Below are positions 1,379-8,857 of a stretch of 32,000 bases of DNA, piece after piece. Source of the DNA: Deinococcus radiodurans R1 = ATCC 13939 = DSM 20539 (GTDB lineage: Bacteria; Deinococcota; Deinococci; Deinococcales; Deinococcaceae); NCBI RefSeq assembly GCF_000008565.1, contig NC_001264.1, positions 95,417 through 127,416 on the forward strand, written 5' to 3'. Position numbers and translations under genes: made by a program. How positions within the stretch are numbered: position 1 is the first letter of the stretch; each line of letters starts with the position of its first letter. The notes under the pieces are model-generated. The model did not search any database, was not told where the DNA came from, and saw nothing but the letters and a program-made list of their open reading frames with translations.

Positions 1379-1698
1379 TGCTGCTTCCTCAGTTCCGTGA
1401 CGAGGCCGTGACCCTGCTGGTGCAGGTGCCTGGGCAGAAGGGGCGGCTGGGCGGCGAGGTCAGTCCACCGACCTACACGCCTGGTGAGACGCACACGGCG
1501 CTGGTGACGAATCTGGGTGCAGAGCAGGCCGTGAAGCTGGGGCTGACGGCCACCGGGCAGCGCTGGCGGGTGCGCCTGCCTGCGGGCGTCCTGGTCGTGC
1601 CGGGGGACCGCCTGCGGTTCCGGGGCCGGGAATGGAAGGCCGCGCTGGTCGAAGTGCGGACAAGCTACACCAAGGTGATTGCGGAGGAAATCCGCTAA
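1378..1698 (+). CDS. Putative head closure / head-tail joining protein
   Basis: The internal ATG at 1378 of ORF 1300-1698 overlaps the previous stop (TAATG). The 106-aa product MLLPQFRDEAVTLL...RLRFRGREWKAALVEV has the size and pattern of the SPP1 gp16 / Phage_H_T_join type. Confidence 0.5.
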   Translation: MLLPQFRDEAVTLLVQVPGQKGRLGGEVSPPTYTPGETHTALVTNLGAEQAVKLGLTATGQRWRVRLPAGVLVVPGDRLRFRGREWKAALVEVRTSYTKVIAEEIR

Positions 1699-1701
1699 AA
1701 T
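1696..1701 (+). promoter_or_regulatory. -10-like hexamer TAAAAT, 7 nt upstream of the tRNA-like element
   Basis: TAAAAT at 1696-1701 overlaps the stop codon of the previous gene. Its spacing puts a transcription start at ~1708-1709. I could find no convincing -35. Confidence 0.3.
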
Positions 1702-1708
1702 CCTTGTG

Positions 1709-1812
1709 ACGCGGTTGGGTGAGAGGCTGAAACCTATAGCCGTTATGAGTCATGGGAGTGAGGAACGGCTCAATACTCCACATGACCATCCGTTCGAATC
1801 GGATGCCGCGTG
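1709..1812 (+). ncRNA. tRNA-like structured RNA (type-II/Ser-like D-arm, consensus T-arm, 7-bp acceptor stem) with a non-canonical anticodon domain
   Basis: Acceptor stem: ACGCGGT (1709-1715) pairs with GCCGCGT (1805-1811), 6 Watson-Crick pairs plus 1 G-U. U8/G9 lie at 1716-1717. D-arm: GGT-GAGAGGCTGAA-ACC (1718-1734). T-arm: ATCCG-TTCGAAT-CGGAT (1788-1804) with the G53-C61 pair. The centre is a 6-bp stem, GCCGTT (1739-1744) with AACGGC (1764-1769), closing a 19-nt loop rather than a 5-bp/7-nt anticodon arm. Total length is 104 nt. Confidence 0.5.
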
Positions 1813-1814
1813 TC

Positions 1815-1836
1815 CTGCCCAGAGATGGGCAGTTTT
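1815..1836 (+). terminator. Terminator-like hairpin directly after the tRNA-like element
   Basis: CTGCCC (1815-1820) pairs with GGGCAG (1827-1832) around a 6-nt loop, followed by TTTT (1833-1836). Confidence 0.45.
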
Positions 1837-1855: not shown

Positions 1856-2230
1856 GTGCCAGCCGACTTCAGCAGTGTTCGAGAAGCGGGAATAGACGTG
1901 CTTCAGCAGGAACTCGCCAATCGGGCGCAGCGCCTGCGAAATGGCATTGTCGAGGAACTCTCCCGCCCCGGCACAGGCCGCACCTACCGCACGGGCCACC
2001 GCACCGCGCCCCACAGCACCCACCAGGCCAGTGCCCCCGGCGAGTCTCCAGCGGTCAATACGGGCCGACTCCGGCAGTCCATCACCGCGTTGCGGATCAG
2101 CCCGATGAACTGGCGGGTGGGGACAAACGTGGACTACGCCCTGCACCTGGAGTTCGGCACACGGCGCATGGCCCCCCGCCCGTTCCTGCGCCCGGCAGCA
2201 GACAAAGAGCGTGAGCGTGGTGCGCCGTGA
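1856..2230 (+). CDS. HK97 gp10-family phage tail-component protein
   Basis: GTG at 1856 is preceded by GGAGAG (1843-1848). The motif ...AVNTGRLRQSI...VGTNVDYALHLEFGTRRMAPRPFLRPA is characteristic of the HK97-gp10-like family. The upstream part of ORF 1679-2230 covers the RNA element and was rejected as coding. Confidence 0.75.
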   Translation: MPADFSSVREAGIDVLQQELANRAQRLRNGIVEELSRPGTGRTYRTGHRTAPHSTHQASAPGESPAVNTGRLRQSITALRISPMNWRVGTNVDYALHLEFGTRRMAPRPFLRPAADKERERGAP

Positions 2231-3053: not shown

Positions 3054-3299
3054 GTGCCTCTCTTCGCCCTGGCCCGCCGCAATGGCGAGCCAGTGGCCCT
3101 GATCACGGGTGCCCACCGCGATGGTGGGCGCCTGTATGCGGGGCTGCTGGTTGTGCAGGCCGGCTTGACCCGGCGGCGCTGGACATTTCAAGACACCGAA
3201 ACAAAAGAAAAGCTCGTTTTGGAGCTACCCAAGGACGCGCTGCACCTCAAGCGAGGGGCAAACACAGCGCGGGTCTGGCTGGAGGTTTATGACCGCTGA
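3054..3299 (+). CDS. Hypothetical small phage protein (82 aa), artificially fused to the major tail ORF in the six-frame track
   Basis: GTG at 3054 lies 2 nt after the inferred major-tail stop. The sequence VPLFALARRNGEPVALITGAH...ARVWLEVYDR is protein-like. Its stop overlaps the chaperone start region. Confidence 0.4.
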   Translation: MPLFALARRNGEPVALITGAHRDGGRLYAGLLVVQAGLTRRRWTFQDTETKEKLVLELPKDALHLKRGANTARVWLEVYDR

Positions 3300-3759
3300 A
3301 CTGCAATGGGGCAGCCGGGGCACGCCCACCCCTTACCCGATCACCGAAGAGGCCCGCGAGGCCCTGCAAGAGCAGCAGATCGAGGCGCCGGAGCACCTGG
3401 TGCTGCACCTCCGTTCGGCCACCGGGCGTGAGCGCAAGAAGTTCCAGGCCGCGCTGGGCAAGTGCAAGTCCGAGGATGACCTGCGCGAATTGCTCGCCGA
3501 CCTGCTGCTCACCCGCATGGACGAGGGCACCGACCGGCGGATCGTGCGTGAAGTGCTGGAGGACGCCGACCAGACCGCCCTGAACCAGCTTCAGTACGCC
3601 TATGTCAACGGGGTCATTCCCGAGGGAAAAGCCCTGGAGCGGGCCGTCCAGGCGACAGCGGCCCGACTCACCCCAAGGACGCTCGACGCCCTCGCAGCTA
3701 CCTCAAGGCCGTCTTCGCCGCCTTCTACGGCGTTCGTCCCTGGGAATGGGACCACCTGA
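3289..3759 (+). CDS. Tail assembly chaperone (gpG-like, zero-frame product)
   Basis: GGAGGT lies before the ATG at 3289. The gene sits between the major tail and tape measure genes and contains the slippery heptamer. Confidence 0.7.
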   Translation: MTAELQWGSRGTPTPYPITEEAREALQEQQIEAPEHLVLHLRSATGRERKKFQAALGKCKSEDDLRELLADLLLTRMDEGTDRRIVREVLEDADQTALNQLQYAYVNGVIPEGKALERAVQATAARLTPRTLDALAATSRPSSPPSTAFVPGNGTT

Positions 3760-4103
3760 CCAAAGAAGACATCGAGGACTTGGACGTGGAATTGTCCACG
3801 GTCTTCTACCTGCGGGACCGGGCGATGCGGGAATATCACTTCTACAAGTTGCCTGAGGAGGCCCGCAAAGGTCTGGCCGAGCCGCCGGAATCGCCCAAGA
3901 ACGGACGCCTCACGGCAGAGCAACAGATCAGTCGGGACGCCCTCGTGGCGTTCATGTCGGACTACAACCTGCCTGAGCTGCAGCACCGCGTCCCAGGTGC
4001 CGCGGCACGGGAACTACTGGCACTGCACAAGGCAGGCAAGCTGCCCCGCTGGGCACAGAAGGCCGTGCGGCTGCGCGAAATGCGGGCGGCGGCAAGGGGG
4101 TGA
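3289..4103 (+). CDS. Tail assembly chaperone GT-like fusion made by programmed -1 ribosomal frameshift at 3624-3630
   Basis: The -1 frame is open from the slip site to 4103. It reads ...SYLKAVFAAFYGVRPWEWDHLTKEDIEDL... and continues into ORF 3780-4103, which has no good start of its own (TTG). Confidence 0.65.
3624..3630 (+). promoter_or_regulatory. -1 frameshift slippery heptamer G GGA AAA
   Basis: It fits the X XXY YYZ pattern in the correct phase of the 3289 frame (gag gga aaa), close to the lambda G/GT site GGGAAAG. A GC hairpin, GGGCCG (3641-3646) with CGGCCC (3659-3664), lies 10 nt downstream. Confidence 0.7.
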
Positions 4104-6293
4104 ACTATGGCATCAGGTGGAGGCACGGGCGGACAGGCCGCAGAAGTTTACGTCGATCTCGTCGGGCGGTTCGATGAATTCGAGCGCCGTTTAGCCGAGG
4201 TCGAATCTGGTGCCGGTGACGCAGGTGAGCGGGCAGGCTCCGGCTTCGGCGACAAATTCAGCGCCGGGTTGACCATCGCCGCTGGCGGCCTCCTGGCCCT
4301 GACGGGAGCGGTGACTGCCGTCGTGGGCAGCACCGTGGGGCTGGCACAGGAAGCGGCGCAGAACGTCAACGACTTCCAGGCCAAGCTGGGCGCGTCCCGA
4401 GAGGAAGCCGAAAAGCTGGGAACCGTCGCCGAGCAGGTCTTTGGCGACAACTGGACCGGCAGCCTCTCTGAGGCCGGGGAGGCCGTCGCCAATGTGCGCC
4501 GGGAGGTCAAGGGCCTGACCGATGAGGAACTGGCCGGAGTCACTGGAGCCACTGTTGCCATCGCGGAAAACTTCGACGAGGAGCAACAGCGCGTGGCCGC
4601 GTCGGTGCAGGCCGTCATGCAGGCGACTGGCGTCGGCGCCAAGGAAGCCACCGACTTCATCGCGGCGGGCTTCCAGCGTGGGCTGAACACCTCCGGGGAC
4701 TTCCTGGACACGCTCATGGAGTACGGTCCGCAGTTCGAGAAATCCAAGATCGGGGCTGACCAACTGTTCTCGATGCTCGAAACCGGGGCGCAGAAAGGCG
4801 CGTTGGGGACGGATAAAATCGCGGACGCCTTCAAAGAATTCGGACTGACCGTAACGGATGTTTCCGACGCCAGCACCGAGACCTACGCCGAGTTGGGCCT
4901 GAGCCACAGCAAGATCGTGGCCGACATCAACAGCGGCAAGATGACCACCGCCGAAGCCTTCGAGCTGGTCACCAAGAAGCTGAACGAGGTCAAGGGAGTG
5001 GCCGACAAGACCCGCATCAGCGCCGCCGTATTCGGTGGGGCTGGTGAGGACATGGCGGCGGGGCTGGCCGGAATCGACCTGACCAAAACCAAGCTCAAAG
5101 ACCTGCAAGGGGCCACCGACGCCCTGAATGCCAAGTACAACAACTTTGGCAGCCTCGCTGAGGGCATGTGGCGCAAGGTGCAGGTCGCCCTGCTGCCGGT
5201 GGGCAAAGAACTGCTCGGCATGGCAAACGAGGCGGTGCCCTACCTGACCAAGGCGTTCGACCAGGTGGGTCAAAAGCTCCCTGGCATGATCAAGAGCGGG
5301 ATCGAGACGGCCAAACAGTTCGGGGCCACTGCCGTCAACGTCTACAACTCGGTCAAGCCTGCCATTGAAACCACCGTGGTCACGGTGCAGAAGCTCAGCA
5401 GCTTCATCGAACGGAACAAGGAAGTCCTGATTCCGCTGACAGCTGCTGTGGGGGCTGGTGCTGCTGCGTTCGGGCTGTACCGCGCCGGAGTCGTGGCGGT
5501 GACCGTCGCCAAAGCCGCCTGGACGGTTGCCACCACAGCGGCCACCACCGCAAGTGTGGCCCTCCGCGCGGCCATCGCCTTCCTGACGGGTCCCATCGGT
5601 CTGGCGATCGCGGCCATTGGCCTCCTGGTCGGTGCGGGCGTGGCGCTCTACCGCAACTGGGATGAGGTCGTCTCCTGGGCGCACAAGACGTGGAACCAGA
5701 TCAAGGGCATCGTCGAGAACGCTATCAATGGGGCCATGTCCTACCTGCGCGGTGTGGACATGAAAGGCGTGGGCCTCGACATCGTGCAGGGCCTGGTAAA
5801 CGGCATCCTGGCCGGGCCGCGCCTGGTGCTCGCCGCCGCCCGCAACCTGGGCAGCAAGGTCATTGAGGGTGTCAAGGGTGTCCTCAACATCCAGTCACCC
5901 TCCCGCGTGATGAAAGAGCTGGGCGAGTTCACGGGTCAGGGCTTCGTGATGGGCCTGGAATCTGAGGTGCCGAGCGTTCGCAAGGCCGCCGAAGCGACAG
6001 CCAAAGCGTTTCTGGATTCGTTCAGCGACCTGAAGCTGGAACGGTCGGTGGGCAACGTGGACCTCACCACCTACACCCGCACGCTGGAGCAGGCCGCCGC
6101 GCAGCTGCGCAGCAAGCTCAAGACAGTGCAGGAGGGCACCCCTGCCTATGTTGCCTGGCTCAAGGCGCTCCAGACCGTGACGAGCGAGCTGGACGCGGTC
6201 AAGAGCAAGAGCAGCGGCGCTCAGGCATCAGCCAAGGGTCTCGCCGACGAGCTGACCCGCAACCGTCAACAGATCGAGCGCGGCGAGGCGATG

Positions 6294-7199
6294 GAGCAGT
6301 ACGTGGGGAGCCTGCGCTCGGCCACCTCGGCGCAACTGGCCTCGGCGCTCGAAACGGCCAGAGCCAGGGGCGAAACCGAGAAATACAACGCGATTCGTGA
6401 CGAGCAGCGCCGCCGCACCGACGCGGCCACCGCTGCCCAGAACAAGGCCACCGACTCGGTGCGCCGGCACCAGGAACAGGTGGCGGACACCCGTTCCCAA
6501 ATCGCTGCCAACGAGGCACAAGAACGCTATGTTCTCGGACTGCGTTCAGCCACCGACGCTCAGCTCCGCTCGGCGCTCGAAACCGCCCGGAGCCGGGGCG
6601 AAATGGAGCGGTACAACGCAATCCGCGACGAACAGCGCCGGCGCACCGACGCGGCTACCGCTGCTCAGGAAAAGGCGACGGAAGCGGCGCGGCGCCACCG
6701 GGAAGAAGTCGCGGACAACCGTGCCCAGATTGCCGCTGGCGAGGCGCAAGAGCGCTATCTGGCTGGGCTGCGCTCGGCCACTGATGCCCAACTCCGTTCG
6801 GCCCTGGAAACTGCCCGCAGTCGCGGCGAGGTGGAAAAATACAACGCGATTCGTGACGAGCAAAAGCGCCGTGCTGATGCTGTCCGGGACGCTGAGGATA
6901 AGGCGACTGAGGCCACCCGCCGTCAGCAGCAGCAGCTGGCCGACAACCGTGCCCAGATTGTCGCGGGTGAGTCGCAGGAACGCTACGTGCGCGGCCTGCG
7001 CTCGGCCACTGATGCCCAACTCGCCAGTGCCCTCGCCACCGCCCGCGCTGGTGGCGAGATCGAGAAGTACAACCTGATCCGGGCCGAGCAGAAGCGCCGC
7101 ACTGACGCCGCTGCCGACGCCCAGGAGAAGGCCGCTGAAGCCTCGCGCCGGGAAGCCGAAGCCGCTACCCAGGGGCGCAAGGCCATCGCTGAAGGGCGT
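6294..7199 (+). repeat. 4 in-frame tandem repeats of 228 nt (76 aa) inside the tape measure gene
   Basis: Units start at 6294, 6522, 6750 and 6978. Consensus: ERYVxGLRSATDAQLxSALETARxRGExEKYNAIRDEQxRRTDAAxxAQxKATEAxRRxxEQxADNRAQIAAGEAQ. Confidence 0.9.
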
Positions 7200-7202
7200 G
7201 AG

Positions 7203-8857
7203 TACGATGCCTGGAAGGAAGGGCTCAAGGGCCTGACCGACGAGGAGCTACGGGCCTCTGCCGCCTCGCTGGAAGCTGCTGGAAACCAGCAACGTTACGG
7301 CGACGTGATGGGCGAGCTGAAGCGCCGCACCGACGAGGCCAGCCGGGCACAGGAAGCGTGGGGCGACAACCTCGACCGCCTGGCCGAGTCGGACTGGGTC
7401 AAGGGCCTGCGGGACCTCAACGATGCCCAACTGGCAGCCGCCCTGAGCAGCGCTGAGGCTGAGCACAACGTCTCCCGGTACAACGCGGTCCTGGCAGAGC
7501 AGACCCGCCGCACCGATGAGGCGAGCAAGAAGCACGAGTCCTGGGCCGACAACCTGGACAAGCTCAGCGAAAGCGGGTGGGTCAGCAGCCTGCGGGACAT
7601 GACCGACGCTCAGCTGGCCTCGGCACTGGCGACAGCACAGGCAGGGGAGAACGTCTCTCACTACAACGCGGTCCTGGCAGAGCAGCGGCGCCGCACCGAC
7701 GAGGTGGAGAAGGCACAGCGCAGCTGGCTCGACAACCTCGACCGGGTTCAGCAGGGCACCTGGGTCAAGAGCTGCGGGACATGACCAGCGAGCAGCTGGC
7801 CGCCGCGCTCGCCTCTGCCGAGGCAGGGCAGAACGTGGGCGAGTACAACGCCGTCCTGGCCGAGCAGGGACGCCGCACCGACGAGGTCACCAAAAAGACC
7901 GAGGCATGGGCGGACAACCTGGTCAAACTCAGCGAGGGCAACTGGACCAAGGGCCTGCACGACTTCACCGACGAGCAGCTGCTCTCGGCACTGGCAACCG
8001 CTGAGGCTGAGCAGAACGTGGGCCGCTACAACGCGGTCCTGACCGAGATGCTCCGGCGCCTGGACGAATCGGGCAAAAAGCAGGATGCCTGGCTCGACAA
8101 CCTCGACAAGATTGGAGAGGGCAACTGGGTCAAGGGCCTGCGGGACCTCGACGAATCGCAGTTGCAGGCTGCCCTCAGCGCTGCCGTCGCCGAGCAGAAC
8201 GTTGCCCGCTACAACACAGTTCTGGCCGAACTCGCCCGGCGCACGGACGAGGCCACCAAGAGCCAGGACGCCTGGAACGACAACGTCAACAAGCTCAATT
8301 TCTCGCGCTGGACGGCGGGCCTCAAGAATATGAGCGACGCCGAGCTGGACGTGATGCTGGGCATGGCGGCGGCTGCGGGCAACATCGCGGAGTACAACGC
8401 GGTGCTGGCCGAGCAGGGACGCCGGGTTGACGATGCCAGCAAGAAGCACGAAGCCTGGGTCCAGAACCTGGAGAAGATCGAGCGCGGCACGTGGGTGGAC
8501 AGCCTGCGGGACCTGAGCGACGAGGAACTTCAGAGTGCCCTGGCCTCGGCCACCGCCGCCGAGAACCTCGACGGGTTCAACGCTGTGCTGGCTGAAATGA
8601 AGCGGCGCACCGACGACGCGGCCAGGGCCCAAGCAAGCTGGAACGCGGTTATCGGGAAGCTCGACCGTGACGGGTACGCCGAAAGCCTCAAGGGCATGAG
8701 CGACGCTCAGCTCGTGCTGATGCTGGAGACGGCGTCCTCGACCCAGAACGCCGAGGATTTCACGGCAATTCTGGCCGAGCAGAGCCGCCGTACCACTGAG
8801 GCCGCCAAGAACACCGAGACGCTCGCCGCCGCCCGCCAGAAGCTCACCGAGATTCAG
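7203..8857 (+). repeat. 9 in-frame tandem repeats of 183 nt (61 aa) inside the tape measure gene
   Basis: The anchor W/Y codon falls at 7212, 7395, 7578, 7761, 7943, 8126, 8309, 8492 and 8675. Every interval is 183 nt except 7761 to 7943, which is 182. Consensus: WVKGLRDLxDAQLxxALxxAEAxxNVxxYNAVLAEQxRRTDExxKxxxxWxDNLDKLxxG. Confidence 0.9.

Follow-up and report, generated by a model that had tools for sequence, protein, structure and literature searches.

Inside a prophage on chromosome II of Deinococcus radiodurans, positions 1709 to 1812 of the window (by which the whole stretch of 32,000 nucleotides under study is meant) carry the acceptor stem, D-arm and T-arm of a transfer RNA (tRNA) and have no anticodon arm. 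This element was brought in by an insertion which related prophages lack, it is directly followed by a terminator-like hairpin, and the same architecture is found in other phage sequences. With a probability of about 0.55 it is a real, horizontally acquired, non-decoding RNA gene derived from a tRNA, which is carried on a cassette of the moron type and acts as a tRNA mimic. A stand-alone tRNA-like gene with a non-canonical anticodon domain had been proposed for this place in a first-pass annotation, and the proposal has held: a lineage-specific insertion of low GC content, a terminator, recurrence of the layout elsewhere, covariation in acceptor and T-stems and sequence similarity in the middle domain all speak for it. 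Among the identities that had been listed as candidates, the non-decoding tRNA mimic fits best, and a degenerate tRNA or a regulatory element of the late operon is less favoured.

The tRNA-like body consists of the following parts.

1709-1812, + strand: tRNA-like RNA, 103 nucleotides plus the discriminator G1812
1709-1715, + strand: 5' strand of the acceptor stem, ACGCGGT; all seven pairs covary across relatives
1718-1734, + strand: D-arm of the class-II type, GGT-GAGAGGCTGAA-ACC, with a stem of 3 base pairs (bp) and a loop of 11 nucleotides; A14, G15, G18, G19 and A21 are in place
1788-1804, + strand: T-arm, ATCCG-TTCGAAT-CGGAT; four of its five pairs covary across relatives
1805-1811, + strand: 3' strand of the acceptor stem, GCCGCGT; no CCA is encoded, and TCC follows G1812

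The acceptor stem of 7 bp, one of them a U.G pair, sits on a T-stem of 5 bp, and the T-loop TTCGAAT with the pair G53:C61 is that of a canonical tRNA. U8 and G9 are found at 1716-1717, and U8, A14, G18, G19 and A21 are all present, together with a residue at position 48 as partner for residue 15; the tertiary contacts are predicted from these identities. A canonical anticodon arm with a stem of 5 bp, a loop of 7 nucleotides and U33 is missing, and its place is taken either by a stem of 7 bp with a loop of 19 nucleotides or by a long hairpin. The minimum free energy of the element is -41.8 kcal/mol (z = -3.2). On all these points, namely the coordinates of the acceptor stem, U8/G9, the 3-bp D-stem and the T-arm, the absence of a 5-bp/7-nucleotide anticodon arm and the total length of 104 nucleotides, the first-pass annotation was correct.

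Detection by tRNA search tools, which had been suggested there as a check, gave no match with ARAGORN in its default mode or with Rfam at gathering thresholds. When introns were allowed, ARAGORN drew a cloverleaf at exactly 1709-1812 and called it tRNA-Pro(AGG) with an intron of 16 nucleotides. This was its sole call in the 32 kb, as compared to 0.05 calls per window in 20 shuffled windows and none in 300 shuffles of the element. The element reads A1:U72, C2:G71, G11:C24 and G73, a set which does not fit the identity rules for serine, leucine and tyrosine in Escherichia coli. Because of these mismatches in the acceptor stem, the D-stem and the discriminator, the RNA is not expected to be aminoacylated.

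Between the D-arm and the T-arm lie 53 nucleotides, compared to 51-66 in those relatives that could be parsed and about 38 in phage class-II tRNAs. Two pairings, here called S1 and S2, occupy this middle domain.

1738-1744, + strand: S1a, AGCCGTT, in the linker after the D-arm, pairing with 1764-1770 (p = 0.027 in the window)
1750-1759, + strand: S2a, TCATGGGAGT, 5' strand of the long hairpin at the variable-arm position
1764-1770, + strand: S1b, AACGGCT, in the apical loop of the S2 hairpin
1775-1785, + strand: S2b, ACTCCACATGA, 3' strand of the long hairpin, followed by C47 and C48 (1786-1787)

S1 comprises 7 bp and closes a loop of 19 nucleotides; the size of this loop had been recognised at first sight, and the stem had been counted 1 bp too short, as a GC-rich stem of 6 bp. 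The 3' segment that had been described as 18 poorly paired nucleotides has in fact 17 nucleotides and pairs with the big loop to form S2. In the window S2 has 10 bp with one bulged base, and its duplex energy is -17.1 kcal/mol versus -8.8 +/- 2.2 kcal/mol in shuffled sequences (z = -3.75). It ends two nucleotides before the T-stem, which is the place of the variable arm in class-II tRNAs. When the tRNA core was enforced, the form with S2 reached -36.9 kcal/mol and the form with S1 -30.9 kcal/mol. As S1b lies in the apical loop of S2, S1a lies in the linker and the S2 form is the more stable one, the folding calculations suggest that the domain forms a loop-linker pseudoknot or else switches between two states.

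Relatives of the RNA were found through its layout. BLAST of a 1-kb region and of the gap between the flanking genes against 50,697 phage records gave no match, and scans with the exact pattern of T-arm plus acceptor and with the pattern AAACCTATA...ATAC...GTTCGAATC gave 0 matches each. A 17-mer from the big loop matched a single contig, L010, which was discarded as a chance match with unrelated flanks. The 17-mer of the D-arm, GGTGAGAGGCTGAAACC, is present in 22 IMG/VR contigs; 13 of these carry it in a canonical phage tRNA-Ser(GCU) or tRNA-Tyr(GUA), 7 by chance, and 2 (L012 and L030) in the layout of the window element. Among the false positives of this motif search are L014, L018, L026 and L029, where GGTGAGAGGCTGAAACC is part of a coding sequence resembling phage lysozyme (...GERLKPY...). 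In L032, at about 2040-2056 on the + strand, the 17-mer is found inside a GGGCAG...CTGCCC closure together with a hairpin GGGCCAGG-AAAGGAG-CCTGGCCC, with no T-arm. Further relatives were collected with spaced patterns running from the D-arm to the T-loop, from which normal class-II tRNAs were excluded; most other matches to these patterns are coding sequence without acceptor or T-stem pairing and were rejected. Those added in this way come from viral contigs (L041, L097 and L098/L103, as well as L095 matching L084, L096 matching L062 and L101 matching L073) and from metagenomes (L052, L055, L062, L064, L067, L072, L073, L083, L084 and L091). In all, the layout recurs in about 13 further unrelated phage or metagenome sequences.

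The plan common to these RNAs runs from a closing stem through UG, the D-arm GGU-GAGNGGCUNAA-ACC, a linker of 2-5 nucleotides, S1a, S2a, S1b, S2b, (N)C48 and the T-arm, with a 5-bp stem and the loop GUUCGAAUC, back to the closing stem. This closing "acceptor" stem has 7-13 bp in the relatives and often takes the form 5'-UGG...CCA-3'; in several of them the acceptor and T-stems are of the 8/5 type or longer. The search enforced parts of the D-arm and of the T-loop alone, and pairing in the acceptor and T-stems as well as C48 were not required. In an alignment of ten sequences including the window, 98% of the cells in the acceptor, D- and T-stems pair, compared to 32-44% when the partners are slid by one to three columns. 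Both sides change in all seven acceptor pairs and in four of the five pairs of the T-stem, and the covariation score is 0.97 versus 0.22 +/- 0.04 in shuffles, none of 500 of which scored as high. C48, which would partner G15, is found without exception in all 14 sequences compared.

For the middle domain the MAFFT alignments (A2 and A3) proved unreliable for column-wise assessment of S1 and S2 pairs, and shuffle tests were therefore done sequence by sequence. Taken singly, the window, L030, L062, L083, L084 and L091 each have a significant S2 (z between -2.9 and -3.8, reached by at most 0.6% of shuffles), and S2 is weaker elsewhere. Throughout the set the conformer with S2 has the lower energy, and the apical loop of S2 contains S1b. 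An example is L072, where the hairpin GGTC-GATATGA-GACC exposes a loop of seven nucleotides which is fully complementary to the upstream TCATATC. The close pair L062 and L084 differs by compensatory changes in both helices, from U.G to A-U in S1 and from C-G to G-C in S2. The middle domain of the window resembles those of L012, L083 and L091 in sequence as well (z 3.3-3.65), with the shared motifs TATA-CC, ATGAG, GTGAG and GGCTC(A/T)ATAC. Owing to this significant similarity the window element is regarded as a homologue of the relatives and not as a mere look-alike. Two relatives are recognised by the Rfam tRNA model above its gathering threshold of 29 bits (L030 with 32.4 bits and L064 with 30.3 bits), where the anticodon region is taken as an insertion.

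The surroundings of the relatives differ, and no conserved protein neighbour was found among them. In L091 the element (1491-1602, + strand), which has a closing stem of 10-11 bp, lies 5 nucleotides upstream of a canonical tRNA-Asn(GUU) at 1607-1680 (+ strand). In L073/L101 it is located 24 nucleotides downstream of a tRNA-Ser(GGA), within a cluster of seven tRNAs on a viral contig of about 140 kb. Other relatives are solitary and occur in early or replication regions or beside a methyltransferase gene. Judging from these contexts, the RNA itself appears to be the conserved unit, which at least sometimes would be co-transcribed with tRNAs. The cluster of L073 (4881-7315, - strand, with the odd element at 7118-7202, - strand) also contains four tRNA-Ser isoacceptors and a 95-nucleotide "tRNA-Ile(UAU)" which may be a class-II body like that of an allo-tRNA. 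The element of L067 (3205-3303, + strand), a member of a "CTCTG-GTGCG" subgroup, is about 0.8 kb away from an open reading frame (ORF) at 4100-5257 (- strand) whose N-terminal sequence is like that of a tyrosine integrase, and it could be a tRNA-like gene serving as integration site.

The element came to its present place as part of a cassette. The late operon of a prophage of the siphovirus type occupies positions 1 to about 14,400 of the window; its products comprise a major head protein, a head-closure-like protein, a Neck1 or tail-completion protein like gp10 of HK97, a tail terminator and a tape-measure protein. The genes of this operon abut or overlap; the exception is a gap of 157 nucleotides (1699-1855), which extends from the TAA of the head-closure-like gene to the GTG at 1856 of the gp10-like gene. 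This gap, and its being richer in A and T, had been pointed out in the first-pass annotation, and its length and composition were confirmed. The deposited record contains no coding sequence in the gap, according to the PLSDB listing, which omits RNA genes. The cassette, its borders and the two flanking genes are as follows.

1378-1698, + strand: upstream gene, with a head-closure-like product (PHROG 501) that ends in IR, compared to VK in relatives
1683-1688, + strand: left copy of the microhomology at the insertion junction, GGAGGA, from comparison with L001 and L003 in alignment A1
1689-1842, + strand: inserted cassette, absent from five related prophages; GC content 52% compared to 68-70% in the flanks
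1696-1701, + strand: -10-like hexamer TAAAAT (5 of 6 positions match TATAAT), 7 nucleotides before base 1709 and overlapping the stop codon of the upstream gene
1815-1836, + strand: hairpin resembling an intrinsic terminator, CTGCCCAGAGATGGGCAG, followed by TTTT, from a terminator scan
1843-1855, + strand: GGAGAGTGAACTA, right copy of the microhomology and remnant of the end that the upstream gene had before the insertion, which reads GGAGGTGAAGTAGC in relatives
1856-2230, + strand: downstream gene, HK97 gp10-like tail-completion/Neck1 protein, with a GTG start
Junction in relatives (slashes mark the borders): ...ATTGCCGAGGAGGTGAAGTAGC / GTGCCAGCC
Left junction in the window: ...ATTGCGGAGGA / AATCCGCTAAAATCC...
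Right junction in the window: ...CCATTTGGAGA / GTGAACTA / GTGCCAGCC

In alignment A1 the gap is missing from five related prophages, one in a Deinococcus metagenome-assembled genome (L001) and four in metagenome or SRA contigs (L003, L004, L006 and L008). They encode gp10 proteins with 75-92% identity to that of the window, and the two flanking genes are 0-1 nucleotide apart or overlap. Alignment of related prophages had been recommended as a source of compensatory changes; it revealed the insertion instead, and the covariation of stems was seen in the unrelated phage and metagenome sequences described above. The insert of about 160 nucleotides is bounded by GGAG(G/A) direct repeats at 1683-88 and 1843-47, which would be the expected trace of illegitimate recombination at a microhomology. 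At the right junction the former end of the gene persists in diverged form (GGAGAGTGAACTA versus GGAGGTGAAGTAGC), and these positions, 1843-1855, now form the Shine-Dalgarno region of the downstream gene. The upstream gene ends with IR instead of VK because the insertion starts there.

The terminator scan matched 1815-1832 plus TTTTCCATTT. A hairpin with a T-run at this place had been noted earlier with a distance of 3 nucleotides from the discriminator; hairpin and T-run are there, and the stem begins 2 nucleotides past the discriminator. The hexamer TAAAAT likewise ends 7 nucleotides before the first acceptor base, as had been claimed. The idea that the element is its own transcription unit is thus half borne out: the terminator is present, and of a promoter there is a -10-like hexamer alone, as no -35 element is recognisable upstream of TAAAAT and a promoter scan by sigma-70 rules, from which those of Deinococcus may differ, found no full promoter of the sigma-70 type. 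A phage "moron" is defined as a unit absent from relatives, foreign in composition and equipped with a terminator, and perhaps a promoter, of its own. The cassette is located between genes which are adjacent in relatives, deviates in base composition and has its own terminator, and with its possible own -10 element it therefore looks like a moron with RNA as its cargo. A search for further copies, which covered the window, the 412-kb chromosome II record and PLSDB but not chromosome I, found a single copy and no other PLSDB match, and within this scope a multi-copy repeat of the SNR or MITE kind is not supported.

A course of events consistent with these data would start with the insertion of the cassette of about 160 nucleotides, by way of GGAG microhomology, between two translationally coupled genes for head-tail connector proteins. 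The RNA would have kept the acceptor stem, the class-II D-arm, the T-arm and the nucleotides that build the elbow intact, with the anticodon arm replaced by a short linker and the long hairpin S2 at the position of the class-II variable arm; complementarity of the apical loop of S2 to the linker, that is S1, would then give rise to a pseudoknot or a two-state switch. It would be transcribed from a weak promoter of its own or together with the late operon. A start near 1708/1709, as expected from the -10-like box, would produce an almost mature 5' end, and transcription would be terminated or attenuated at 1815-1836. The enzymes of tRNA maturation might excise the RNA, with cleavage by RNase P between 1708 and 1709, trimming of the 3' end after G1812 and addition of CCA, a step proposed because no CCA is encoded. 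The product might accumulate as a stable, non-decoding RNA of about 104-107 nucleotides, which would act in trans, as a tRNA mimic or as an RNA built on a tRNA scaffold, by engaging a factor that recognises the elbow or the acceptor, without decoding. The S1/S2 domain would be its functional part.

Several points weigh against this picture. Its last step, the role as a trans-acting mimic, is something we infer. No close relative in sequence was found in IMG/VR, in phage records or in plasmid records; the exact element occurs in one genome lineage, and the copies in D. radiodurans are all identical, with selection unmeasurable. Rfam searches at E <= 10 with 251 and 123 nucleotides gave no tRNA match for the window element, and the output at this level is noise (TMV_UPD-PK1, SMAD5-AS1_3 and sno_ZL116). 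The promoter amounts to a -10-like hexamer alone. The group of relatives was found by a search anchored in the D-arm and the T-loop and its type was picked by eye, which biases its definition, and since the acceptor or P1 stem varies from 7 to 13 bp its members may not all be processed alike. Taken sequence by sequence, S1 has weak significance (p 0.03-0.27), and its combined Fisher p of 6e-4 over 14 sequences is a figure biased by the selection by eye. S1 and S2 at full length look sterically tight when formed together. Finally, no antisense target beyond chance was found in the 32-kb window (one 10-mer versus 2.7 expected), and a role as antisense regulator was dropped on this ground.

That the element is a decaying pseudogene, a phage class-II tRNA on a moron which has lost its anticodon arm and is carried as neutral cargo, is unlikely. 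It would account for an RNA with no anticodon loop which default ARAGORN and Rfam do not recognise, whose bases disagree with the E. coli rules for serine, leucine and tyrosine identity, and which is found as a single copy in one lineage, related prophages doing well without it. Decay would, however, hardly have left all helices of the window element intact (acceptor stem 7 bp, T-stem 5 bp, S1 7 bp and S2 10 bp with one bulge), and about 13 very different sequences share its layout, the compensatory pairing in S1 and S2 and the motifs in the middle of the domain. A layout that recurs some 13 times would not be the outcome of independent random decay, and relatives have been retained in phage tRNA clusters. 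Rather improbable is a cis-acting punctuation of the late operon, in which the fold would recruit RNase P and 3' processing, the terminator would attenuate, and head and tail messages would become uncoupled in amount and stability. The location on the sense strand between the head-closure and tail-completion genes, where the late operon would be transcribed through the element without a promoter of its own, and the intrinsic terminator directly behind it would suit such a role, and phage RNAs processed by RNase P are exemplified by C4 of P1/P7, to which L012 has a weak and non-significant match. Yet closely related prophages need no such element, a processing site needs no elaborate S1/S2 domain, and the relatives have settings as different as tRNA clusters, the vicinity of a methyltransferase gene and early or replication regions, so that the RNA is conserved and not its position.

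A decoding tRNA with a short intron-like insert in the anticodon loop, be it the tRNA-Pro(AGG) of ARAGORN or one with a loop A-U-G-A-G resembling U33-G34, is very improbable. ARAGORN does draw a full cloverleaf when introns are allowed, in several relatives S1a is followed at once by W-U-G-A-N-R, which resembles an anticodon loop in its 5' half, and L030 yields a textbook loop UUGAAAA if 13 nucleotides are removed at 37/38. The insert would have 12-16 nucleotides versus about 200 or more in group I introns, the only tRNA introns known from bacteria, and no bacterial mechanism is known that would remove it. Moreover, the supposed intron pairs with the variable region and is one strand of S2, for which reason the intron-containing tRNA was judged unlikely: removal of this strand would leave an unpaired variable region of 17 nucleotides, atypical for class II. 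The anticodons implied (AGG, AUG or GAG) are inconsistent and do not suit a class-II body, and the acceptor stems of relatives have 7-13 bp. Still less credible is a Y-RNA-like partner of the Ro orthologue Rsr, which the first-pass annotation had brought into play. Both Rsr and Y RNAs resembling tRNAs in some features do exist in D. radiodurans, and RNAs of the YrlA type occur in phages (PMC4201824), but the known Y RNAs lie within 2 kb of rsr (PMC4201824), as opposed to the late operon of a prophage. No Rfam family of Y RNAs matched at E <= 10, and the order of parts in YrlA is permuted (T, acceptor hairpin, D) and Yrn1 has a long Ro-binding helix, whereas the element has normal tRNA topology with a plain acceptor stem of 7 bp and lacks a Ro-binding helix; topology, context and the missing model match led to the rejection of this reading. 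Least probable of all is that the fold is due to chance or that the region is coding as an N-terminal extension of the gp10-like protein, starting at TTG 1679 or ATG 1745. The ORF 1679-2230 is indeed open. The near homologues listed, however, have 109-135 amino acids without an extension, and relatives start at a GTG or ATG equivalent to 1856, which is preceded by GGAGAG; no Shine-Dalgarno sequence precedes ATG 1745, and a chance fold was excluded by the shuffle controls. That no stop codon interrupts the downstream frame across the whole insert (1679-1855, 59 codons, with an ATG at 1745) is probably coincidental as no homologue has the extension and ATG 1745 lacks a Shine-Dalgarno sequence.

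Compared to known systems, the tRNA-derived element resembles in its body phage tRNA-Ser(GCU) and tRNA-Tyr(GUA), with which it shares an identical D-arm (UGGGUGAGAGGCUGAAACC), the T-loop GUUCGAAUC, the 7/5 stack of acceptor and T-stem, C48 and the occurrence as a stand-alone phage gene. In contrast to phage class-II tRNAs it has neither an anticodon arm of 5 bp and 7 nucleotides nor a self-paired variable arm, and has S1/S2 instead. With respect to the Rfam tRNA family RF00005, the relatives L030 and L064 pass the gathering threshold, whereas the window element gives no match at E <= 10. It fits the group defined here, for which there is no curated family: a class-II D/T core, an S1a complementary to the apical loop of a hairpin abutting the T-stem, and C48. 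With transfer-messenger RNA (tmRNA) it has in common an acceptor and T-arm and a non-tRNA domain in place of the anticodon region, and tmRNA contains pseudoknots, as the element may. A tmRNA, however, has about 350 nucleotides, a stemless D-loop, G3:U70 and a tag ORF, while the element has 104 nucleotides and G3:C70, and the tmRNA mode of ARAGORN found nothing at the element.

Small phage RNAs that are cut from longer transcripts by way of a tRNA-like acceptor end comprise C4 of P1/P7, CI of P4 and the stable RNAs C and D of T4; in this connection several relatives have a 5'-UGG...CCA-3' closing stem. C4 and CI, however, work through antisense loops and lack a D/T elbow. The C4 antisense RNA family (RF01695, threshold 45 bits) has no match in the window, and L012 alone matches it weakly (15 bits, E = 2.3). 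The moron concept of Juhala and Hendrix comes from lambdoid and HK97-like phages. Like a moron the cassette lies in a late structural operon between genes adjacent in relatives, with deviating GC content, its own terminator and possibly a promoter; classical morons encode proteins, whereas the cassette encodes a structured RNA. Bacterial Y RNAs such as YrlA and Yrn1/Yrn2 of D. radiodurans are non-decoding RNAs with a tRNA-like D/T elbow which are found in D. radiodurans and in some phages (PMC4201824), and some of them are recognised by enzymes that modify or process tRNAs (PMC4201824). They differ from the element by the permuted order in YrlA, the long Ro-binding stem of Yrn1 and the linkage to rsr, and the element has no match to their covariance models. 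Allo-tRNAs and "irregular tRNAs" with bodies resembling class II or tRNA-Sec have been described from metagenomes and phages, and some of these do not work in translation and are suspected of a regulatory role (Mukai et al. 2017, PMC5389517; review PMC7609411). Allo-tRNAs have an acceptor branch of 12 bp with 8/4 or 9/3 acceptor and T-stems and a normal anticodon arm, as opposed to the 7/5 arrangement without anticodon arm in the window.

As to the locus itself, the gap region is 100% identical to NZ_OV024759.1 388426-388586, and the same locus is present in CP094463 (L002). In the latter (L002 3001-3399) the C-terminus of the gp10-like protein is frameshifted (...MAPARSCARQQTKSVSV...) relative to the window (1856-2230) and the relatives (...MAPRPFLRPAADKERERGAP), either genuinely or through an error in the assembly. 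Two small ORFs (3289-3759 and 3780-4103) lie directly 5' of the tape-measure gene (4107-7784, 1225 amino acids), in the position of tail-assembly chaperones. In the course of the search a second kind of odd class-II tRNA-like sequence was encountered in L050 (1347-1423 and 1528-1604, - strand, as two tandem copies), L080 (2852-2928, + strand) and L082 (13038-13116, - strand). Its body, like that of tRNA-Ser(GCU), retains the 3' half of the anticodon arm (CTAA-ACTGT), while a hairpin TCCCGA-NNNN-TCGGGA takes the place of the 5' half.

No description of a class-II body with the anticodon arm replaced by S1/S2 was found in the literature, where tmRNA, Y RNAs, allo-tRNAs, tRNA-Other and the tRNA-like structures of plant viruses are all different, and Rfam 15 has no family for these RNAs beyond marginal tRNA matches. 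A tentative wider view, for which the odds are clearly below even, is that they make up a phage-borne family of "tRNA-scaffold" RNAs, in which the elbow and acceptor would be kept for maturation by the host and the pseudoknot or switch domain would bind a host or phage factor. Anticodon and variable arms would here be fused into one domain with the conserved motifs UGAR, GUGAG and GGCUCWAUAC, which might serve, for example, as a decoy for a defence nuclease or a synthetase that recognises tRNAs. Phage tRNA genes are increasingly viewed as weapons against host defences that target tRNAs. The cassette offers a clear evolutionary example of a moron that codes for an RNA and would have entered through microhomology between translationally coupled structural genes. 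RNAs which keep the body of a tRNA without its anticodon escape ARAGORN in its default mode and, as in the window, Rfam, and have so far gone uncounted; even if the element were merely a relic it would mark a blind spot of annotation pipelines. If functional, the group would join tmRNA and Y RNAs as a further class of bacterial and phage tRNA mimics, and D. radiodurans is a genetically tractable host in which its binding partner could be sought.

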